Positions 8,414-50,781 of a DNA stretch of 64,000 bases are shown piece after piece. Position 1 is the first letter of the stretch. Each line of letters starts with the position of its first letter. Below the pieces are notes generated by a model. It ran no database searches. It was given only the letters and a program-made list of their open reading frames with translations, and had not been told where the DNA came from. The DNA comes from an uncultured Gammaproteobacteria bacterium (GTDB taxonomy: Bacteria > Patescibacteriota > Patescibacteriia > Patescibacteriales > UBA12465), in the NCBI GenBank assembly GCA_964355275.1, contig CAYHCB010000001.1, positions 99,424 through 163,423 of the forward strand. Direction: 5' to 3'. The position numbers were made by a program, and so were the translations under genes.

Positions 8414-10102
8414 TTATTTTTTAGCTTTAAAAGAGGTGTGAAGTACAGCTTTGCCTAAACCAATCTTTTTAACATAAGAAACGGCCGCCATTGCTTCTAA
8501 GTTTTCATGAGCTCGACGAACCTTTTGCCTGTTATCAATGGAATATAGCGCTGCCATTCGCATTTTTCTTGTTGCTAAAGACGCTGGGGCTGGTTGACCA
8601 CCACCACCAATACAACCACCAGGACAACTCATTACTTCGATATAATCATAATCACTTAAGTGATTTAAGACCTGAGAAATATTACCCAAACCATTTACTA
8701 CGGCGACCCTTAAATTGCGACCGGCAATCTTCACAATACTTTTTTTAATACCCAAAGTACCGCGAACATCTTTAAATTCTAATTTGGCTAAATTTTTCTT
8801 TTTTTCTAAATACCAAACAGCGGTACGCAATGCTGACTCCATTACTCCACCTGAGGCACCATAAATAGCTCCTGCGCCGCTACCATTATTCCAAATTAAA
8901 TCACCGGGTTTAGGACTAAGTTTCATAAAATCAATTTTTGATTCTTTCATCATTAAAGCAAATTCTCTAGTAGTGATGACAATATCTACTGGAGAGACAT
9001 CTTTTATTTTAAACTCTGATCGAGTAATTTCATACTTTTTAGCCGTACAAGGCATAACGGAGACAACTATAATATCCTTAGGATTAATGCCAATTTTAGC
9101 TGCCCAATAAGTTTTTATTACACCCCCTAAATGCATGTGTGGCGACCTAGCTGAAGTTAAGTGTGGAATAAGTTCTGGGTGTCGTGATTCAACATAACGA
9201 ACCCAAGCGGGGCAACAAGAAGTCATCATTGGAAAAATTGCCTTTTTATCTTCTAGTCTTTCAATTAATTCTTCAGCTTCAGTTATGGTTGTAATATCGG
9301 CTCCTAGATTAACATCAAAAACATAATTAAAACCTAATTTTTTAAGACCGGCGACTACCCGCCCAGTCATTTTATCATCATATTCGGCCCCAAATTCTTC
9401 ACCAATAGCGGCCCGAATTGAGGGAGCAAATTGAGCAATTATAATTTTATTTTTATTTTTTAAAGCTTTATAGACATCTGGATAAGAAATTTGTTCAGAG
9501 ATAGCATCAACCGGACAATGAGTAACGCATTGGCCACAGAAAGTACAAGGATTTTTAGTGGGCACAATTTCTTGATTAATCCCATGGCCTTTAAGCTCCA
9601 AACAATTTAATTTTTGTAATTTATTACAAGCTTCAAGGCATAAACGACAATCAATACATTGAGAGCCGTCAATTTCAATTGAAGGTGAAAAATGATATTT
9701 TTTACGATTAACCTTCCGCTCTAAAAACCTAGTTGACTTAACGCGATACTGCTTTACTAAAGTAAGCAAGGGGCAATTAAATCTTAATTTACAAGAAGCG
9801 CACTTTTCTACGTGCTCCGCAAATAATAACTCTAAGTTAGTTCGTCTTAAACGTTTTACTTTAGGGGTATCTAAAAATACCTCTAAATTATCTTGTGCCG
9901 GTGTCGAGCAAGCGGAAACAACCTGTCTCTTTGAATTATAAATTATTTCTACTAAACAAAGACGACAATTCCCTTTAACCGGAAAGTCGGGATGAAAACA
10001 CAAAGTAGGAATAAAAATATTATGCCTTTTAGCTACCTGTAAAACTGTTTCGCCAGGATTATAAACAAACTCCCGATTATTTATTTTTAGTATTTGCGTC
10101 AT
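8414..10102 (-). CDS. hydA: [FeFe] hydrogenase catalytic subunit (M3-type domain layout)
   Basis: H-cluster motifs TSCCPAW, MPCTAKKYE and EVMSCPGGCIGGGGQP. Also an N-terminal 2Fe-2S Cys set, HVEKCASCKLRFNC, and two CxxCxxCxxxCP motifs. Confidence 0.9.
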   Translation of the reverse strand: MTQILKINNREFVYNPGETVLQVAKRHNIFIPTLCFHPDFPVKGNCRLCLVEIIYNSKRQVVSACSTPAQDNLEVFLDTPKVKRLRRTNLELLFAEHVEKCASCKLRFNCPLLTLVKQYRVKSTRFLERKVNRKKYHFSPSIEIDGSQCIDCRLCLEACNKLQKLNCLELKGHGINQEIVPTKNPCTFCGQCVTHCPVDAISEQISYPDVYKALKNKNKIIIAQFAPSIRAAIGEEFGAEYDDKMTGRVVAGLKKLGFNYVFDVNLGADITTITEAEELIERLEDKKAIFPMMTSCCPAWVRYVESRHPELIPHLTSARSPHMHLGGVIKTYWAAKIGINPKDIIVVSVMPCTAKKYEITRSEFKIKDVSPVDIVITTREFALMMKESKIDFMKLSPKPGDLIWNNGSGAGAIYGASGGVMESALRTAVWYLEKKKNLAKLEFKDVRGTLGIKKSIVKIAGRNLRVAVVNGLGNISQVLNHLSDYDYIEVMSCPGGCIGGGGQPAPASLATRKMRMAALYSIDNRQKVRRAHENLEAMAAVSYVKKIGLGKAVLHTSFKAKK

Positions 10103-10118
10103 CTTTTTTAATAAATAA

Positions 10119-10871
10119 TTATATTTGTTTATCCTTTACTTCTTTTAAGCTTTTATAAAGCTGATAAAAGTAAACTATAAAATATGGAGCTAAAATAGCC
10201 CAGATAATATTAATTAAAACATTATAAGCAATAAAAATATTACTGCCCTCTGACATTTTATATACTGGCCAAGAAATAAAGGCATACACTAAAATAGCAA
10301 AAATTGAAACTAAAAATAAACGACCAAAAACTGACCAAAAATATCCTTTAACTAAGTCATAACTTCGCTCAACTGCCGAAAAAGGACGCTTATCTTCTAT
10401 TACCAGGATATAGGCGGCGAAACTATAATAAATTCCAAAAATTAAAGCTGGGATGATAAAAAGAAAGCCCCAAGCAATAATCAAAACCATCATTAACATG
10501 GAAACTCCTAAAAACTTTATAAAATATGGTTTAGCTTCTTCAAAATTATTTCTAGCTGGCGTAAAATTATTTTTAAGCAATAGAATGCTCGCGACCTTAG
10601 TCCTAATACTATAAACTATAGCTATATACAGACTGGCCACAAATAAACCAAAACCAATTAACGCGAGACTAAAGTTAACTAGTAATGAAGCTTTTTCCGC
10701 TAAACCAGTTATGTTGTAAGTAAAAAATAAAACTAGCACCACTAGTAAAGGAATAAGACCAGACAACCCGTAAAGAAAAACCATAATAAATTTTAATAAG
10801 TTTTTTCGATAGATTTCCCAGCTTTCTTTAAAAAGAGTGACTGATTTAATAAGCTTTTCTTTTTGATTCAT
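10119..10871 (-). CDS. polytopic membrane protein of unknown function (about 6 TM)
   Basis: 250 aa, almost entirely hydrophobic helices, embedded between the NuoF-like and HydA genes with 16-31 nt gaps. Confidence 0.65.
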   Translation of the reverse strand: MNQKEKLIKSVTLFKESWEIYRKNLLKFIMVFLYGLSGLIPLLVVLVLFFTYNITGLAEKASLLVNFSLALIGFGLFVASLYIAIVYSIRTKVASILLLKNNFTPARNNFEEAKPYFIKFLGVSMLMMVLIIAWGFLFIIPALIFGIYYSFAAYILVIEDKRPFSAVERSYDLVKGYFWSVFGRLFLVSIFAILVYAFISWPVYKMSEGSNIFIAYNVLINIIWAILAPYFIVYFYQLYKSLKEVKDKQI

Positions 10872-10902
10872 ATAGTTAAAGGGCGGTTTTTTAAATTAAC
10901 CG

Positions 10903-11934
10903 TTATTTTATTTTTAAAATGTTTTTATAATAACTTGATAATGGTAAAGCAACACTTTTCCCGTAAGAACAAAGACTCCCGTCCTTTAAAAGCTCTAAAA
11001 TATCCCAGAATTCTGGGCTATACTTTTTTTTAGCTAAAAATAATTCCAGCAATCTACTAGTTCCTTCACGACAAGGAGTGCACATTCCGCAAGAGCCATC
11101 TTTAAAAAAGTTAAGAAGACGACCAATTATTTCTTCTTGCTTATTATCAAACCAAGAATAAACAGTGATTGATCCGCTACCACTAACAGTTCTTTTCAGT
11201 TGAGTTGAATTTAAAAATTCCCCACAAATATCACCACCAACCTGAACAAAAAATTTACAAGAAGGAAAATTACCCGTTAATCGTAAGATATCTTCTATTT
11301 TCCAATCACCCGGTAAAGAATAAACACCAGGGCGCGATACCTCGCCGCTAATTGTATAAAACCTTTTAGAATCAAAATTATTATTTTTAATTAAAGCTAC
11401 TTGAAAAAAAGTTTCAACATTATTAATAATCGTTGGCTCGCCAAATAAACCACTATCTACTGGCAGCGGTGGTCTTAAACGCGGCTCCTTTCTTTTGCCC
11501 TCAATTATATTCAAAATTACTGTTTCTTCCCCGCTTAAATAACTTAAGACCTTAGGCTTAAGACTCCAGTGCCAAAAAATTGAGAGTGAAAGAAATTGAT
11601 GCTCGCCTAAAAGTTTATTTATTTTTTTGGCGTAAAGTTTATAATATTCATGATTTATAAAGCAGTAAATACCAGCTAAACGTTTAGGTCCTAGAGCTAA
11701 AACACACTCTTTTACTCCTTCAAGAACTAGGTTAGCGTGATGTTCTAAAATATAAGCATCTTTCTTTACTCCTGGCTCGCCTTCAGCAGCATTAATGACA
11801 ATATAAAAACCTGCTTTTTTATTTTTTTCTAAAGCACTTTTAACTCCTTGCCATTTTATAGCCACCGGAAAACCAGCGCCACCGCGCCCCCGTAATTCTA
11901 CTTTGTTTATCTTTGTGATTATATCACTACCCAT
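10903..11934 (-). CDS. NuoF-like flavoprotein subunit (NADH-binding, FMN, 4Fe-4S), short form
   Basis: GRGGAGFP, AAEGEPG, SGEETVILNIIEGKR..PR.RPP and SCGMCTPCREG plus a distal Cys. Only 343 aa. Confidence 0.85.
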   Translation of the reverse strand: MGSDIITKINKVELRGRGGAGFPVAIKWQGVKSALEKNKKAGFYIVINAAEGEPGVKKDAYILEHHANLVLEGVKECVLALGPKRLAGIYCFINHEYYKLYAKKINKLLGEHQFLSLSIFWHWSLKPKVLSYLSGEETVILNIIEGKRKEPRLRPPLPVDSGLFGEPTIINNVETFFQVALIKNNNFDSKRFYTISGEVSRPGVYSLPGDWKIEDILRLTGNFPSCKFFVQVGGDICGEFLNSTQLKRTVSGSGSITVYSWFDNKQEEIIGRLLNFFKDGSCGMCTPCREGTSRLLELFLAKKKYSPEFWDILELLKDGSLCSYGKSVALPLSSYYKNILKIK

Positions 11935-23073: not shown

Positions 23074-24102
23074 CTAATCAATAATATAGGTCTTATAAAT
23101 ATTCTCCTCGGTACAAGCGATAACTTTTTTAAGTAATTTAACTGCCTCCAGTGAGTAATCTCCCACGGTTGTTTCATCAGATAACATTACCATATCAGCG
23201 CCATCAAAAACAGCGTTAGCAATATCACTAATTTCAGCCCGAGTAGGATGAGGGTTCTTTATCATTGAAGTCATTACTTGAGTAGCTAAAATTGTTGGTT
23301 TATTGTGCCAATGAGCGTGTCTAATTAAATTCTTTTGGATAATTGGTAACTCCTCAATTGGCACCTCAATACCTAAATCGCCACGAGCCACCATAATAAC
23401 ATCAGAAGCGGTGATTATTTTATCAATATTTTTAAGAGCAATCCCCCGTTCAATTTTAGAAATTATTTTTACTTTACTTTTTTTACCCAACAAAGTTCTA
23501 AGTCTAGTTACATCATTAGCAGTTTGTACAAAAGATAAAGCGACATAATCCATTCCAGCTTTAATGCCAAATTTTAAATCTTTAATATCTTTAGCAGTTA
23601 GGCCACCTTTTTTCATGTTCGTGTCAGGAACATTAATGCCCTTATTAGAACTTAAAACGCCACCATTAATAACTTTAGCAGTAATTACCTTATTTTTTAC
23701 ATCTTGAACCATGAGTTCAATAGCACCATTACATAAAAATAAAGGATGATTTTTCTTTATATCTTTATATAAATCGCTACTATCAATTGGAATAATGCCC
23801 CCATTTTTATAAGGTAGCTTAGAATAAGTAAATTGATAAATCTCATCAACATGTAAAGTGATGCCAGCTTCAGGAAATTTACCGACTCTAATTCGTGGTC
23901 CTTGTAAATCCAGCATTAAAGAAACCTTACGCTCACTATCATTATTAAAAACATCGATAATTTTTTTAATTTTTTTATATTGATCATAGGTAGCATGAGA
24001 AAAATTAACTCTTACCATATCAACGCCATTTTTCATAAGAGCGGTTAAAGCTTCTTCTGATTCTGATTTAGGGCCAATAGTGGCCACTATTTTTGTGTTC
24101 AT
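23074..24102 (-). CDS. pyk: pyruvate kinase lacking the C-terminal (allosteric) domain
   Basis: TKIVATIGP, RVNFSHA, MVARGDLGIEVP and MLSDETTVG. Ends about 20 aa after the last A-domain motif, at 342 aa. Confidence 0.9.
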   Translation of the reverse strand: MNTKIVATIGPKSESEEALTALMKNGVDMVRVNFSHATYDQYKKIKKIIDVFNNDSERKVSLMLDLQGPRIRVGKFPEAGITLHVDEIYQFTYSKLPYKNGGIIPIDSSDLYKDIKKNHPLFLCNGAIELMVQDVKNKVITAKVINGGVLSSNKGINVPDTNMKKGGLTAKDIKDLKFGIKAGMDYVALSFVQTANDVTRLRTLLGKKSKVKIISKIERGIALKNIDKIITASDVIMVARGDLGIEVPIEELPIIQKNLIRHAHWHNKPTILATQVMTSMIKNPHPTRAEISDIANAVFDGADMVMLSDETTVGDYSLEAVKLLKKVIACTEENIYKTYIID

Positions 24103-24168: not shown

Positions 24169-25320
24169 TTATTTAATTTTCTTTAAATAACCCATTAAAC
24201 TAGAAAAAAATTCTAAATTATTTAAACTAGCTAATTTTTGTCCTAGTGGCTCATTAACTCTAAATAAATGATGAAGATAGGCTTTGGTATAATTTCTTAA
24301 TTCTGGAATTTTACTTTTATGATTAATTTTGGAAAAATCTTTAGTATAAATAGCGTTACTAATATTTATCGTATTATAAAATTTAGGAGAAGTGGTGATT
24401 ACTTTATCTGTATTTTTTGGGCTTTTAAATCCTTTAAACTTAGAATCGAAATAAAATAGTCTACCATGTCTGCCCTCGCGCGTTGGTATTACACAATCAA
24501 ACATATCCCAACCCATTAAATAAGACCGATAAATATCATCCGGAGTACCCACACCTAAAGCAAAACGAATAGCATCTTTAGGAATGTAAGAAGCGGTTTT
24601 AAACATTACCTCAGCTAAGAAATTACCACTAACATCAATTGGCCTAGCACCAAAACCATAACCATCAAAACCAATAATCGATAATTCTTTGGCGCATTTT
24701 TCTCGTAAATCTAATTCTGCTCCTCCCTGAACAACACAAAATAGTAAAGGTCTTTTAGCCCCAATTAGTTTTCTTTTTTTTACTTGTTTTAAATATTCAA
24801 CCTTACAACGTTTAGCCCAAGTAATTGTTCGGGTGACCGCTTTTTCTAAATCAACTCGAGAAAATTCATTAGGCGGACAATCATCTAAACAAACCATCAT
24901 ATCAACACCTAAATTAAACTGAATCTGAATAGACCTTTCTGGCGTTAATTCATGTTTTGAGCCATCAATTGGTGACTTAAAAATTACTTTATCATCATTA
25001 ATGCTCCCCATATTCTTACTACGGTGGATTAATGAGAAAACCTGAAAACCGCCGCTATCAGACAAAAGGGGTCGAGAACACTCCATAAATTTATGGATGC
25101 CTTTAGCTTGTTTAATTAAATCTGGTCCCGGCTGAAGATATAAATGAAACGTATTAACCACCATAGCAGGAGTATTGGTTTGCTGAACTTCGGATTCACT
25201 GAGCAACTTTATAAAACCACGCGTAGCGTCTGGCATAAAAAAGGGTGTAACTAAATCACCATGGGCAGTTTTAATTAAGCCACTTCGTAGTTTATTTTTT
25301 TTAGCATTTAATTTAAACAT
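24169..25320 (-). CDS. tgt: tRNA-guanine transglycosylase family protein (divergent, Zn-site-less)
   Basis: LSDSGGFQV, GVGTPDD, MFDCVIPTR and YLHHL are conserved. The CxCxxC...H zinc ligands are replaced by S/I/L...N. Confidence 0.85.
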   Translation of the reverse strand: MFKLNAKKNKLRSGLIKTAHGDLVTPFFMPDATRGFIKLLSESEVQQTNTPAMVVNTFHLYLQPGPDLIKQAKGIHKFMECSRPLLSDSGGFQVFSLIHRSKNMGSINDDKVIFKSPIDGSKHELTPERSIQIQFNLGVDMMVCLDDCPPNEFSRVDLEKAVTRTITWAKRCKVEYLKQVKKRKLIGAKRPLLFCVVQGGAELDLREKCAKELSIIGFDGYGFGARPIDVSGNFLAEVMFKTASYIPKDAIRFALGVGTPDDIYRSYLMGWDMFDCVIPTREGRHGRLFYFDSKFKGFKSPKNTDKVITTSPKFYNTINISNAIYTKDFSKINHKSKIPELRNYTKAYLHHLFRVNEPLGQKLASLNNLEFFSSLMGYLKKIK

Positions 25321-25326
25321 AAAAAA

Positions 25327-27330
25327 TTATTGAACCAGACCAGAATTATTAAAACTAGCAATATCATCATCTTCTAATTTAGTAGTTTTTGAATTAATTT
25401 TTTTATCAAGGACTGATTTAGTGTCAGAATCAATGGCGCTGACGTTTGAACCAGAAAGCAAAACCAATAAACTATTACGTTGGCTTTCATTTGGCGTAAC
25501 ACTAATATTAAATTCTGCCTGAGCTTTATAAGTAGAAACTGGCAAAATACCAATATTCCAAATAACCGAATGGCTAGCACTATCAAAAATTAAATTACCG
25601 GTTGAGATTTGGATACCATCATTAAATGAGACGTAATCTGGCAATTTAGAGATTACTTTTGTATCGCTGAGTTCATGAAGATTATTTTCAATTTTCCAAT
25701 ACACCTTAAGGCTGGTTTTTTCATTTACTTTTGGCGGCAGTGGCCCAGAACCAACTGGGGTATTATTTTCATCAAAATAAAGAACTTTTTCAGTTAGACT
25801 TAAATCACTATTAATTTTAGTCATTATATTATTACTCTTACTATCATTTAAGCCGCCCTGGCGATTATTAACATTAAATTGCGCATAACTTTGGATAGTG
25901 AAACTTTTACCTAAATCACTATCATTATAAGGTCTAACAGCAATTGAAAAATCAATCACCCCTTCCTCTCCTGGATCTAAGGAGCTTAAATCTGGAATCT
26001 GTTCTTTAGTCCAGGTAATTGTATTTTCACCTAAGATTCCTTTTTCAACATTTTTAAAACTAGACCAGTCTAAAAAATCACCCTTTAAAGCAACCATAAT
26101 AGCCACATCACTTAGCGGTCCGTCACTTTTATTAGAGTAAGTTAAAGAATAATTTAAAGTGTCAGAAAAGTTAGCAGTGTTATCATTTTTACTACCATTT
26201 AAAATTAAAGTTAAATTTAAGTTACTATTCATTACATTAAGCCCCACAGTTTTTTCTGCAAAAGTATATGACTTTCCATTTTCCATTTTTTTACTTAACT
26301 TAATAGTAATAGATTGATTATCATCAACCTTCTTAGTAACTTTATAATATACCGGTAAACGATAAGTCCCGTCACTAGCTATTAAATTACGCACACCCCA
26401 TAGTAAAGTCGTCTTTTTATCAACTATTAAACTTGGATCGGTAGTAGATGCTGTAGTACTAGCTGAACCCGGTGTTGTCTGCGGATTTATTAAAATAATA
26501 TTTTCCGGAAACATAAAAGAAACATCAAAATCATCTAAAAAATTACTTTTTACATTAGTAAAAACTAAATCTATTTGACCTTCTTCACCAACTAAAGCAG
26601 CATTGGCATATTCAAAACCTAAATCAAAGCCTAAATCATTAACTAAAGTTGAAGCAACTATCTCTTTTTTAAATTCGCTAGAAAGCTCCCCAGGCTGATA
26701 ACTAAGGCTAGCAATAATTAAACTAGCGGTATCTTTGTTAGAAACTAGTTTTCCTTTTACTAAAATATTAGACTCACCACCGATAAGCAAAGCCGGTAAA
26801 CTAAAATAATTTTGTGAAGCTGATCCCTGAATTGCCTCTAAGCCAGGGCCAGAAACCTCGGAAACTATAAAATTATCAGGATATTTAAATTCTAAACGCA
26901 AAGAGTTTAAATTAAACTTACTACGATTCTTATAATGCAGAGTATAAACAAACTCTTCTCCAGCCTTAACTTGCTCAGGAGCATTTATAGTAAAATCTAC
27001 CAAGGAAGCGTCCAGTGATTGATTAGAAAAATAAAAATAAAAACCATAACCTAAAACAAGCAACACCGCCACCACAAATAATTTTTTAATAATTGATACT
27101 AAGACTGAACCTTTTTCGTGTTTCATGTGAGACACATCAACTAAATCTCCAGCTTTATCACGATAAATTTCTGATAAATTATCGTCGATTTCTTCTTGAC
27201 GAGCTTCTTTTTTAACCGCCCTTTCAAAAATTTTGACCTGCTCTTCACTGGGTACCGGTCTTTTTATAAAAACTGGCGCAACTTGACGACTGGAAATTTT
27301 TTTAGGTTTATTTTTGTTATCAATTATCAT
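25327..27330 (-). CDS. single-pass membrane protein with repeated beta-sandwich (DUF11/CARDB-like) domains
   Basis: Charged N-terminal tail and one TM (LFVVAVLLVLGYGFYFYF). Then 3-4 repeats of the pattern G-x-x-hydrophobic-x-Y-x-hydrophobic-x-Y/F-x-N. Confidence 0.6.
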   Translation of the reverse strand: MIIDNKNKPKKISSRQVAPVFIKRPVPSEEQVKIFERAVKKEARQEEIDDNLSEIYRDKAGDLVDVSHMKHEKGSVLVSIIKKLFVVAVLLVLGYGFYFYFSNQSLDASLVDFTINAPEQVKAGEEFVYTLHYKNRSKFNLNSLRLEFKYPDNFIVSEVSGPGLEAIQGSASQNYFSLPALLIGGESNILVKGKLVSNKDTASLIIASLSYQPGELSSEFKKEIVASTLVNDLGFDLGFEYANAALVGEEGQIDLVFTNVKSNFLDDFDVSFMFPENIILINPQTTPGSASTTASTTDPSLIVDKKTTLLWGVRNLIASDGTYRLPVYYKVTKKVDDNQSITIKLSKKMENGKSYTFAEKTVGLNVMNSNLNLTLILNGSKNDNTANFSDTLNYSLTYSNKSDGPLSDVAIMVALKGDFLDWSSFKNVEKGILGENTITWTKEQIPDLSSLDPGEEGVIDFSIAVRPYNDSDLGKSFTIQSYAQFNVNNRQGGLNDSKSNNIMTKINSDLSLTEKVLYFDENNTPVGSGPLPPKVNEKTSLKVYWKIENNLHELSDTKVISKLPDYVSFNDGIQISTGNLIFDSASHSVIWNIGILPVSTYKAQAEFNISVTPNESQRNSLLVLLSGSNVSAIDSDTKSVLDKKINSKTTKLEDDDIASFNNSGLVQ

Positions 27331-47587: not shown

Positions 47588-49432
47588 TTATCCATTATAA
47601 ATTTCCATTACGCAATTATCACAATCAAATTTTAAAGGATATTTTTTACCATTATAAACTAAAGACAAGGGCCCCTTAAGAAGATTGGCTCCTTTCTTAC
47701 TGCGACGAGGACAAGCGTGCATAGCATAACGCAAACAATGTTTAGTTGTCATTAACTTTTTTGAAGAAGCGTTACTAGTAATTTCTAAAGCCTCCTCTTT
47801 AACTAAACTTTTATGTCTAGTATAAAAAGCTTTAGCTAAATCATTAGATATATTATAAGAATAATCTAATTCTTTAATAGGATAAGGATGTGAAGTTAAT
47901 TTAAGCTTAGAAATTTCTCGAGGATAATTTTCTAAACGCGAAGCTAATAATAAATCAATCAACTGACGACGCCAATTATTAAGAATACTAATCGGCACAA
48001 AACATGGCTGCGACCAATTAAACTTTACCTCGCCAACTCTAAAAATAGTGTCCCCTGTTTTACTAAGTTGTTGTCGCCAATTCTCTTTGGCTTGATCAGT
48101 TTTCTCAGCAGCAACCTTATCCGCCACAATATTTAATTCTACTTTATTGCTATTTTCATCAATAGCACTAATTAACCAACCAGTGTCCAGCTCTTTAACC
48201 CCAATATTAAACAGAATACTTCTAGCTGCTCCGCTTACTACCGCTTTCTCAAAAGCCTGATCTTGATTACAATAAATAAGGGTGCCCGGTTTAAGTGGTA
48301 TCCATTTATTAGGATATATTTTACCGTCACTTATTAAATTAACATTTGTCCCATTTAATTGACCACGACTATTAAACCAACAAAGACCATCACCATTACT
48401 TAATTTAAATGGAGAATCTAATGTAAAATAACGATGGTCAACTCGTTTTACTTTTCCGATATATTTCCCTAAAGATTTTTGATTTTCTGGAGAAACGATA
48501 TCTGGTTGTCTGCCATGTAAAAAATAATCAGTATAACCACGATTAAAAGTCTTAGCTAAATCAGGAACAAAATTAGTAACAGTTTCCCCGCTTGAAGCTC
48601 GCTCAAATCGACCAGCACTAGAATTAATTATTTTATCTAATTCCACTCGATACTTAGCCACTACATTAGTCACGTAAACTGAATCCTTTAAGCGACCCTC
48701 TATTTTAAAAGAGGTAATTCCTGCTTCACTTAATTCACCTAAAGAATTAATAAGATTTAAATCTTTTGGTGATAATAAATATTGGTCTTTAGCTAGCTCT
48801 ACACCCGCCCCATCAACAAGAGAAAACGGCAAACGACAAACTTGCTGACAGCGGCCGCGATTAGCACTTCTGCCAGATAAAGCTTCGCTAAAATAACATT
48901 GTCCAGAAAAAGAAACACACAATGAGCCGTGAACAAAAAATTCTAACTCAACTTTAGTCTTATTTCTAATTTCGGTAATTTCCGTTAAACTAAGTTCCCT
49001 TGCTAAAATTATTCGAGAAAATCCAGTCTTTTCTAAAAATTTTATCTGATTTAAATTATAATTATTTGTTTGTGTACTAGCGTGAATTGGAATTGGCGGC
49101 AGATCCATTTCCAAAATCCCCATATCTTGAATAATTAAAGCATCAACACCAAGTTCATACGCTTGCCAAATAGCGTCGTGAACCGCCGCCGTTTCTTCAT
49201 TAAAAAATATGGTATTTAAGGTTAAATAAACTTTAACGTAGTATTTATGGGCAAATTCAACTAATTCGGCGATATCCTTCCAAGAATTACTCGCCGCCGA
49301 TCTAGCACCAAAACTAGGACCACCAATATAAACGGCATCAGCGCCAGCTAAAATAGCCAAACGGCCACTCTCAAGGTCGCGAGCTGGAGCTAAAAGCTCT
49401 AATTTAATTTTACTAATTTTTTGATTATTCAT
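47588..49432 (-). CDS. peptidase U32 family protein
   Basis: U32 signature EFFVHGSLCVSFSGQC, a TIM-barrel-like N-terminal half and a long C-terminal extension. Confidence 0.9.
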   Translation of the reverse strand: MNNQKISKIKLELLAPARDLESGRLAILAGADAVYIGGPSFGARSAASNSWKDIAELVEFAHKYYVKVYLTLNTIFFNEETAAVHDAIWQAYELGVDALIIQDMGILEMDLPPIPIHASTQTNNYNLNQIKFLEKTGFSRIILARELSLTEITEIRNKTKVELEFFVHGSLCVSFSGQCYFSEALSGRSANRGRCQQVCRLPFSLVDGAGVELAKDQYLLSPKDLNLINSLGELSEAGITSFKIEGRLKDSVYVTNVVAKYRVELDKIINSSAGRFERASSGETVTNFVPDLAKTFNRGYTDYFLHGRQPDIVSPENQKSLGKYIGKVKRVDHRYFTLDSPFKLSNGDGLCWFNSRGQLNGTNVNLISDGKIYPNKWIPLKPGTLIYCNQDQAFEKAVVSGAARSILFNIGVKELDTGWLISAIDENSNKVELNIVADKVAAEKTDQAKENWRQQLSKTGDTIFRVGEVKFNWSQPCFVPISILNNWRRQLIDLLLASRLENYPREISKLKLTSHPYPIKELDYSYNISNDLAKAFYTRHKSLVKEEALEITSNASSKKLMTTKHCLRYAMHACPRRSKKGANLLKGPLSLVYNGKKYPLKFDCDNCVMEIYNG

Positions 49433-50226: not shown

Positions 50227-50781
50227 CTAAAGATTAAAACTACGTAACTTGCGTCGGCGATCCTTATAATCAGGAATTGTTTTCTCAACTAAAGCCCAAA
50301 ATTTTGGTGAATGATTCATTTCCTGAAGATGACACAATTCATGAACCGCCACATAGTCTAAAAGACTTTCTGGCAGTAGTGCTAAACGGCAATTAAAATT
50401 TAAAGCTCCTTGTCTAGAACAACTTCCCCAGCGAGTTTTTTGATCACGAACTGATAAACTTTTATATTTTAAACCATAATAACTATTAAAAAATTCTAGT
50501 CTCGCTATAATTAAATGAGCCGCTCGGTGTTTTAAAATAACTAAGTCATTTTTAGAGACTACTAGTGGTGGAGTATAATTTTTAGTGACTTTTAAATTTT
50601 TTATTATCCAAGTTGCTTTAGCTTTAATAAATTGTTCAATAAAAATAAACGGCACAAAAACTGGTTTAATCACCTTTAAGCCGTTTACGCCAATTTCAAT
50701 TCTCATCTTTCTCGCTTGACGACTGGAAGATAGTTCGTATTCAATCTCCTGCCCTGCTAAATTAATCATTCGCTTAGTCAT
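50227..50781 (-). CDS. M48-like zinc metallopeptidase (DUF45/YgjP family)
   Basis: HELCHLQEMNHSPKFW (HExxH...H) in the typical position, 184 aa. Confidence 0.85.
   Translation of the reverse strand: MTKRMINLAGQEIEYELSSSRQARKMRIEIGVNGLKVIKPVFVPFIFIEQFIKAKATWIIKNLKVTKNYTPPLVVSKNDLVILKHRAAHLIIARLEFFNSYYGLKYKSLSVRDQKTRWGSCSRQGALNFNCRLALLPESLLDYVAVHELCHLQEMNHSPKFWALVEKTIPDYKDRRRKLRSFNL

Follow-up and report, generated by a model that had tools for sequence, protein, structure and literature searches.

A zinc-less Tgt homologue from a Patescibacteriota contig belongs to a conserved clade of putative RNA-guanine transglycosylases with a remodelled substrate pocket

Introduction

The tRNA-guanine transglycosylase (TGT; Tgt in bacteria) is a textbook RNA-modifying enzyme and drug target. 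Both its zinc site and its preQ1 pocket are regarded as invariant, and a 2010 paper called its four Zn ligands absolutely conserved across three kingdoms (PMC3074131). Here we consider a tgt-family gene that departs from both features. It lies in a 64-kb window, the whole stretch of 64,000 nucleotides analysed (contig CAYHCB010000001.1, positions 99,424 to 163,423 of the forward strand), from a genome deposited as an uncultured Gammaproteobacteria bacterium and placed by GTDB in the Patescibacteriota. An initial annotation, made from the sequence of the window, proposed that the product had lost all four Zn ligands together with the LAVGE motif of the preQ1 pocket, and was either a Zn-independent Tgt or an enzyme acting on another base or nucleic acid. 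Which kind of enzyme does this gene encode?

24169..25320, minus strand: tgt-family gene, 383 aa, ATG start, Zn-less, Arg sub-branch of class A (defined below)

On balance, we favour the view that the window protein is an active, zinc-independent RNA-guanine transglycosylase of a clade here termed class A, for which a salvaged 7-deazaguanine at tRNA G34 would be the likeliest substrate and site.

Results

The window protein is a Tgt with an intact catalytic core

The window protein is matched by the Pfam TGT model PF01702 (8.8e-98, residues 11-380) and stops at the end of this domain, with no C-terminal PUA-type extra domains. Comparison with profiles of bacterial Tgt, archaeal ArcTGT and DpdA, a check suggested by the initial annotation, sided with bacterial Tgt: the protein narrowly passed the NCBIfam Tgt equivalog model TIGR00430 (320.5 bits, cutoff 306.75), scored 70 bits with the ArcTGT model TIGR00432 (cutoff 350) and gave no DpdA match. 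Among other class A relatives scanned with TIGR00430, three fell under the cutoff (275-294) and two over it (312 and 361). The closest solved structures are the T. maritima and Z. mobilis Tgt (~4e-66), followed by QTRT1 (6e-52) and QTRT2 (8e-11), the identity to the Z. mobilis and E. coli enzymes being ~33-34%. The AlphaFold2 model has a predicted local distance difference test (pLDDT) of 90.9 and a predicted template modelling score (pTM) of 0.90, and all of its 383 residues align in Foldseek to Z. mobilis TGT (1ozm/1q2r) with a template modelling score (TM) of 0.83-0.85.

The homologue set comprised the 120 closest sequences, which are 63-83% identical from end to end, together with one fragment at 96%. 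Metagenome-assembled genomes (MAGs) of Candidatus Falkowbacteria and Patescibacteria supply the nearest proteins, and close homologues align from residue 1 of the window protein. Mean column identity over 64 homologues was 71%, and strong purifying selection is indicated by the alignment. Residue equivalences were taken from MAFFT alignments and from the HMMER match with Z. mobilis Tgt (PDB 1ozm); the reference sequences of Z. mobilis and E. coli Tgt were checked by residue identity at 16 numbered positions and against the HMMER alignment with 1ozm.

25057..25059, minus strand: Asp88 (Z. mobilis D102), catalytic acid/base, in LSDSGGFQ; invariant in all sets
24496..24498, minus strand: Asp275 (D280), catalytic nucleophile, in MFDCVIPTR; placed by the alignments
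24367..24435, minus strand: 23-residue insertion (residues 296-318) ahead of the former Zn site; a gap in the HMMER alignment

Both catalytic Asp motifs, described as intact in the initial annotation, are indeed so, D88 and D275 being unchanged in 120/120 homologues. The guanine-recognition residues D146 (D156), Q198 (Q203) and G224 are also kept, and G230 is replaced by Ala225 at a backbone contact. R281 and R284, the equivalents of Arg286 and Arg289, are retained within a conserved phosphate-binding set (R281, R284, T33, N56, Q93), and the RNA-backbone-binding residues of Tgt are unchanged. Residues K38, F78, Y344, Y348, H351 and E357 are the equivalents of K52, F92, W326, Y330, H333 and E339, which form the dimer interface of Z. 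mobilis Tgt. The insertion, previously estimated at ~25 aa, is modelled as coil (pLDDT 87-94); insertions of differing length occur at this point across class A, and some canonical-pocket Tgt of the Candidate Phyla Radiation (CPR) have one too, regardless of Zn status. Taken together, the alignments and the structural model show a protein with the predicted properties of a conserved, folded and catalytically equipped TGT that has no Zn site.

The zinc site is lost in the window protein

24220..24315, minus strand: former Zn-binding segment (S336/I338/L341...N367), located by HMMER and MAFFT alignments

In both alignments Z. mobilis Cys318, Cys320, Cys323 and His349 stand opposite S336, I338, L341 and N367, so the loss of all four ligands is confirmed, and the codons of these positions fall inside the interval 24211-24330 to which the initial annotation had mapped the region. 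That annotation also allowed that a better alignment might bring the ligands back. Re-alignment is, however, unable to restore a Cys3His site, given that the last 99 residues of the window protein contain no Cys; this rescue was rejected as impossible.

The replacement residues are themselves conserved. S336 and L341 are found in 119/120 of the closest homologues, Asn occupies position 367 in 102 of them and His in 17, and S336/L341/N368 are invariant among 64 homologues. Near-invariance in 119/120 homologues rules out a sequencing artefact. The former Zn subdomain is predicted with a pLDDT of 95-98, and the structural Zn knuckle would thus appear to be swapped for Ser/Ile/Leu/Asn packing with the fold kept. 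The proposal of a Zn-independent Tgt is supported by these alignments and the model, in which the ligands are gone, their replacements nearly invariant and the subdomain confidently predicted (pLDDT at least 95), and by Zn-less Tgt encoded beside queA in other genomes, as described below. Our literature search for Zn-less TGT found no paper describing such a Tgt or a characterised subfamily of this kind.

Zinc loss is recurrent and separable from the pocket change

A family sample was assembled from 150 representatives (50% clustering) and 80 GTDB species loci; loci and sequence clusters are cited by L and P numbers. Fitch parsimony on a neighbour-joining (NJ) tree gave ~20 losses of the Zn site among 220 Tgt sequences, 41 of them clearly Zn-less, in a sample enriched for likeness to the Zn-less query, so that these losses are not a frequency estimate. 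Zn-less Tgt with a canonical pocket were found in Devosia spp. (cluster P0175, S/N/C/I at the ligand positions), in Nitrobacter vulgaris DSM 10236 (L031, 8871-11116; SWSI in place of the ligands), in a Xanthobacteraceae MAG (SCAI) and in Chitinophagales and Flavipsychrobacter. The loci with a normal GGLAVGE pocket and no Cys3His are L031, L040, L055, L075, L081, L011 and L043. Prosthecochloris ethylica Tgt shows partial ligand loss, and Uhrbacteria Tgt is Zn-less although a sister species retains the Cys-Cys-Cys-His (CCCH) set.

queA lies upstream of the Zn-less tgt both in Nitrobacter vulgaris, where the two genes overlap, and in the Xanthobacteraceae MAG. The occurrence of Zn-less, normal-pocket Tgt beside queA indicates that Zn loss is compatible with normal function, and the Zn-less state is recurrent and probably structurally neutral. 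Judged from their sequences, the Nitrobacter, Devosia, Bacteroidota and Uhrbacteria proteins contradict the absolute ligand conservation claimed in PMC3074131.

The converse combination was also observed. Moraniibacteriota relatives of the window protein (L006/L007; 52-53% identical) carry a GARH[IV]D pocket with CCCH intact, and P0123 and P0262 keep CCCH beside a G[GA]RPVD pocket. Since these relatives keep CCCH, the pocket changed first in the window lineage and the Zn site was lost later. By these alignments Zn loss and pocket change are two separable, independent features, and their treatment as one event in one protein, as first annotated, does not hold.

A closely similar Zn-less solution in the C-terminal ~60 residues is shared by P0124, P0149, P0171, P0237, P0197 and the window protein, with the pattern S-x-[FIL]-x-E-L-[RQ]-N-[YL]-[ST]-K-[AS]-Y-L ... 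L-A-[ST]-L-N-N-L-E-F. The proteins that share it have three pocket types and are distant from each other in a tree of the N-terminal domain, which suggests either convergence or exchange of a C-terminal module.

The remodelled pocket defines the class A clade

24631..24657, minus strand: pocket segment G222-F-G-A-R-P-I-D-V230 in place of AVGGLAVGE, by alignment; pLDDT dips to 82
25228..25230, minus strand: Asp31 in MPDAT (canonical Val45, which lines the U33/ribose-33 sub-pocket); diagnostic of class A
24556..24558, minus strand: Leu255 (canonical Met260, base-stacking), after Ala254 (canonical Leu259), by alignment

The replacement of the LAVGE segment was reproduced: GGLAVGE (229-235) stands ungapped opposite G224-A-R-P-I-D-V230, which lacks Glu235. 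The motif had, however, been regarded as merely lost, and the homologues indicate otherwise, as G-A-[RK]-P-[VIL]-D is present in 119/120 of the closest sequences. Cys148, at the C158 position, is found in 120/120 close homologues, and the V233 position is Ile228 in the window protein.

Two further clade-specific changes, absent from the initial annotation, are V45 to D31 (MPVGT to MPDAT) and M260 to L255. Position 45 is D/E in 62/62 class A sequences vs V/I/C in 140/143 canonical ones, position 260 is L in 47 and M in 15 of the class A sequences vs M in 142/143, and position 259 is A/G in 60/62 vs L in 108/143. The full co-varying set that separates the 62 class A from the 143 canonical sequences consists of Asp45, Val/Met68, Trp/Arg231, Pro232, Asp234, absence of Glu235, Ala/Gly259 and Leu260. 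Class A is a working label defined here by MPDAT with Asp45, G-[GA]-[WR]-[PH]-x-D at 229-234, Ala/Gly259 with Leu/Met260 in xA[L/M]GxG, and clan membership; the window protein has these motifs and falls in the clan. In an NJ tree built from 278 columns, with the motif columns and the Zn region excluded, class A forms one clan, together with P0160, which lacks the N-terminus.

Two sub-branches can be distinguished. The Arg branch (G[GA]R[PH][VI]D) comprises Falkowbacteria, Moranbacteria and relatives, including the window protein. The Trp branch (GGWPxD) comprises Roseiflexus, Chloroflexus, Anaerolineae, Dehalococcoidia, Latescibacterota and Chthonomonadaceae, and extends to CPR groups, among them Saccharibacteria, Dojkabacteria and WWE3. 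Several Trp-branch members have lost CCCH (Saccharibacteria L034, Dojkabacteria P0133, P0138, P0142, P0143). Canonical-type pockets occur in other CPR lineages (Uhrbacteria, Doudnabacteria and some Saccharibacteria). CPR and Chloroflexota are sister groups in published bacterial phylogenies, and a single orthologue passed on vertically would account for the spread of class A over CPR, Chloroflexota and Chthonomonadaceae. Neither NCBIfam nor Pfam holds a class A-specific model, and the names given by the Prokaryotic Genome Annotation Pipeline (PGAP) are 'Tgt', 'tRNA-guanine transglycosylase' and 'tRNA-ribosyltransferase family protein'. In the alignments, what replaces LAVGE is a conserved alternative motif that defines the whole clade, and not a degenerate pocket.

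Class A genes are linked to Q-precursor transporters and Rmt-type methyltransferases

Canonical-pocket tgt genes have queA within 10 kb, mostly directly upstream, in 25 of 59 loci. Class A has other neighbours. In the Trp branch one or two tandem ~270-aa FmrO/Rmt homologues lie directly downstream of tgt, often overlapping it; such a gene is directly downstream in 11/21 class A GTDB loci (11/14 of the non-CPR ones) vs 0/59 canonical loci (p=3e-8), and FmrO/Rmt neighbours also occur in Chloroflexus aggregans, L089 and L090. The homologues resemble 16S rRNA m7G1405 methyltransferases of the aminoglycoside-resistance type; they match Pfam FmrO at 1e-38 to 1e-58 and score 152-247 bits with the NCBIfam model of the G1405-N7 methyltransferase (cutoff 250). 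Furthermore, in Anaerolineae and Chloroflexia loci an RsmI gene (C1402 2'-O-methyltransferase model) is directly upstream and an RsmF-type gene (C1407) directly downstream. Up to four genes for modification of 16S positions 1402-1407 thereby flank the transglycosylase gene in these operons. Loci of the Saccharibacteria type have KsgA/RsmA, the gene of the 16S rRNA dimethyladenosine transferase, directly next to and upstream of their class A-like tgt, with UvrB following tgt in L091 and L092.

L008, L009, L012, L014, L022, L023, L029, L057, L065, L069, L077: FmrO/Rmt-type gene at +1/+2 of tgt
L084/L085 7106-7930; L089 8115-8528; L090 1192-1653: FmrO/Rmt-type gene
L022 9264-9965 and 12636-14147: RsmI/RsmF genes, at the same positions in L057, L065, L069 and L029
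L010 9175-9987; L020 8793-9959: RsmI/RsmF-type genes of further loci
L034 9153-11122; L091 6222-8161; L092 743-2682: KsgA-tgt region, with shared stop/start in L091 and L092
L022 15839-16561; L029 14427-15758; L057 15771-16511; L065 11779-12567; L069 14997-15737: YhhQ transporter (PF02592)
L089 6490-6975: QueT (PF06177), directly upstream of tgt

A PF02592 (YhhQ/QPTR) transporter gene is located 4-6 kb from tgt in the same Anaerolineae and Chloroflexia loci, 5 class A loci in all vs 0/59 others. L089 has the gene order QueT - tgt - Rmt-like, and QueT was not seen near canonical-pocket tgt in the 59 loci. The presence of two unrelated Q-precursor transporter families beside class A tgt points to a salvaged 7-deazaguanine as the substrate of the clade. 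These observations show that class A is linked to Q-precursor transporters and Rmt-type methyltransferases, and not to queA. 'Uncharacterized homologs' of m7G1405 methyltransferases in Chloroflexi have been mentioned (bioRxiv 712810). Our literature searches found no paper linking FmrO/Rmt homologues to a transglycosylase, and nothing relevant on queuosine or queuine in Patescibacteria, Saccharibacteria or Chloroflexi; the taxon tables of PMC11570991, in their text form, hold no CPR or Chloroflexota rows.

Surroundings of the window gene

25327..27330, minus strand: upstream membrane/surface protein, 667 aa, its stop 6 nt from the tgt start; context only

The window has a G+C content of 30-36% and a strongly one-sided gene orientation, and its tgt is surrounded by genes for pyruvate kinase, enolase, a DUF4012 protein and the surface protein. 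A 630-670-aa surface protein immediately upstream is the sole conserved neighbour in the Arg branch (-1 in L003-L007 and L088); its relatives have DUF11/CLIPPER matches and the window copy a sub-threshold Pfam match only. No functional link is implied by this pairing. No FmrO homologue was detected in the window or in L003-L007, and a preQ1 riboswitch search of the window and 11 loci returned tRNAs only.

Several side observations were made. Locus L005 (CAYTAV010000028.1), also labelled uncultured Gammaproteobacteria, has a Zn-less tgt of the Falkowbacteria type (GARPIDR, SILN) behind the upstream surface-protein gene known from the CPR loci, and is probably a mis-binned CPR contig. The pyruvate kinase beside tgt (23074-24102, minus strand; 342 aa) matches the barrel domain only (PF00224, residues 2-321), a search of the rest giving no C-terminal domain, and the syntenic Falkowbacteria homologue is equally long. 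Elsewhere in the window, two open reading frames that to the eye resemble an [FeFe]-hydrogenase-type and a NuoF-type protein lie with a membrane protein between them at 8414-11934 (minus strand). Pfam identifies a 614-aa U32 peptidase with DUF3656, whose family counts RNA hydroxylases among its members, at 47588-49432 (minus strand), and a metallopeptidase of the YgjP-like kind at 50227-50781 (minus strand).

Discussion

Proposed mechanism and points that weigh against it

In the reaction that we propose, Asp275 would attack C1' of a flipped-out guanosine to form a covalent ribosyl-enzyme, from which guanine leaves; Asp88, Asp146, Gln198 and the backbone of Gly224/Ala225 would hold an incoming guanine-like base, which would then be attached. 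A homodimer is expected, as the dimer-interface residues are kept. The incoming base is likeliest a salvaged 7-deazaguanine, and a small preQ1-like base is likelier than queuine because Cys148 and Ile228 would leave no opening in the floor of the pocket; with Cys at the C158 position, preQ1 is preferred to queuine (PMC3074131). Since the RNA-backbone contacts are unchanged, G34 of tRNA Asp/Asn/His/Tyr would be the likeliest target, and the product is probably not handled by the QueA route.

The pocket wall differs from the canonical one, being rebuilt from Arg226-Pro227-x-Asp229, Ala254-Leu255 and Asp31. In Z. mobilis Tgt, a peptide switch at Leu231/Ala232 adapts the pocket to guanine N7 or to the preQ1 amine. 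Pro227 offers no backbone NH and Glu235 is missing, so this switch would be unable to operate in the same way in the window protein.

Several points weigh against this proposal. The argument about Pro227 and the peptide switch rests on an ungapped alignment and on the Z. mobilis structures. The pocket wall, the base-stacking Met and the U33-pocket residue are all altered, and for this reason base and RNA specificity cannot be read from canonical Tgt. queA is near class A tgt in 0/21 loci vs 25/59 canonical ones (p=9e-5). The exact split of class A is recovered in 55/100 bootstrap replicates (mean best Jaccard 0.99). Every link to a transporter or methyltransferase comes from the Trp sub-branch: no que, YhhQ, QueT, Rmt, RsmI or RsmF genes were found in the Arg-branch loci or the window. 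The search for que genes or a queuine transporter that the initial annotation had envisaged likewise came back empty, no que gene, YhhQ or QueT homologue being present within the 64-kb window.

Alternative substrates and functions

The neighbourhoods described above allow another reading, which we regard as a tentative possibility: class A might exchange guanine in another RNA, with the 16S decoding centre near G1405 (C1404-G1405-U1406) as prime candidate, and/or insert an unusual purine, in concert with Rmt-type partners. The downstream FmrO/Rmt genes of 11/21 class A vs 0/59 canonical loci (p=3e-8) speak for it, as do the scores of 152-247 bits that their products reach on the G1405-N7 methyltransferase model (cutoff 250), RsmI upstream and RsmF-like genes downstream in Anaerolineae and Chloroflexia, and KsgA upstream in Saccharibacteria-type loci. 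Within the pocket, the D45 and V/M68 changes fall in the site for the base 5' of the target G, and W/R231, P232 and D234 would put an acid, and a side chain that is either aromatic or cationic, at the point where a backbone NH is offered by canonical Tgt. However, the 16S assignment derives from gene neighbourhood alone, the Arg sub-branch of the window has no Rmt, RsmI or RsmF neighbours, and the RNA-backbone-binding residues of Tgt are unchanged. Moreover, the QueT and YhhQ links fit ordinary Q-precursor salvage for tRNA, genes clustered around translation fidelity need not share a substrate, and 7-deazaguanine is not known to occur in rRNA.

With a similar degree of reserve, class A could be imagined as the base inserter of an undescribed RNA-modification pathway, in which a 7-deazaguanine imported by QueT/YhhQ would be placed into RNA together with the action of Rmt-type methyltransferases. 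Either the base would lie near 16S G1405, or the Rmt homologue would modify the inserted base and so replace the QueA route; the window enzyme would then be a zinc-free, partner-less descendant.

Direct salvage of queuine, as by Chlamydia trachomatis Tgt and eukaryotic QTRT1, would suit host-dependent CPR bacteria without Q biosynthesis, which rely on scavenging. The missing queA linkage and the absence of que genes from the window agree with it, and 'tgt-only' genomes are predicted queuine salvagers according to the text of PMC11570991. The same text gives the queuine-type signature as GG[LS][AS]G, i.e. V233 to G, which the window protein lacks (Ile228); the C158 to V change is absent as well (Cys148 in 120/120 homologues), and a Cys at this position disfavours queuine (PMC3074131). 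A queuine-type pocket was rejected on these two retained residues, and this reading appears unlikely.

The changes might instead be functionless lineage-specific drift in an ordinary preQ1-inserting Tgt that feeds QueA and QueG/H. Fast-evolving CPR proteins frequently look odd, the protein passes the NCBIfam Tgt equivalog cutoff and its catalytic core is intact. Nonetheless, the changed positions are near-invariant in class A even in phyla without fast evolution, such as those of Chloroflexus and Roseiflexus, other residues stand in for Glu235 and the 231/232 peptide switch, and queA adjacency is 0/21 vs 25/59, all of which make this account improbable.

Finally, a DNA-guanine transglycosylase resembling DpdA, or a QTRT2-like subunit without activity, both known offshoots of the TGT superfamily, is very improbable, as there is no match to the NCBIfam DpdA model (NF041059) at E<=0.01, dpd or restriction-type neighbours are absent around the window tgt, the best PDB hit is bacterial Tgt (~4e-66 vs 8e-11 for QTRT2) and both catalytic Asp residues are invariant, unlike in QTRT2; membership of ArcTGT, DpdA and QTRT2 was ruled out by scores and residues.

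Significance

The favoured reading, an active zinc-independent class A transglycosylase, bears on which micronutrient bases reduced CPR cells must scavenge. Recurrent Zn loss, including that in the cultivable Nitrobacter and Devosia, provides templates from nature for a TGT without metal, and a generalisation in the literature is thereby corrected. The more interesting lead is the pocket clade itself, which spans CPR and Chloroflexota under the plain name 'Tgt', and its operon partners: the cultured Chloroflexus and Roseiflexus would allow the inserted base, the RNA target and the role of the Chloroflexi Rmt homologues to be tested.

Comparison with known systems

The window protein resembles bacterial Tgt (EC 2.4.2.29; Z. 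mobilis, E. coli) in its fold, Asp pair, D156/Q203, Arg286/Arg289 and dimer interface. It differs in having no Cys3His site, GARPIDV in place of GGLAVGE with Pro at 232 and no Glu235, the substitutions Met260 to Leu, Leu259 to Ala and Val45 to Asp, and the 23-residue insertion; in addition, queA linkage is absent from all class A loci examined.

With the Trp sub-branch it shares MPDAT, GGxPxD, xA[L/M]GxG, the insertion and the clan, at 35-40% identity. In this branch position 231 is Trp rather than the Arg of the window protein, and the Chloroflexota, Latescibacterota and Chthonomonadaceae members examined keep CCCH, unlike the window protein. The Trp branch usually has an Rmt/FmrO operon, often with RsmI, RsmF and YhhQ/QueT, and the Arg branch is without these.

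The queuine-type TGT, such as human QTRT1 and Chlamydia trachomatis Tgt, belong to the same superfamily and share its chemistry and a salvage lifestyle. Their signature (V233G, C158V; GG[LS][AS]G) is absent from the window protein, and human QTRT1 keeps its Zn site and needs QTRT2.

The Zn-less Tgt with canonical pockets are likewise devoid of ligands with the C-terminal subdomain kept, and some share the Ser...hydrophobic...Leu...Asn pattern. Unlike the window protein, they keep GGL[AS]VGE, Met260 and Val45, and their Zn losses are events independent of that in the window lineage.

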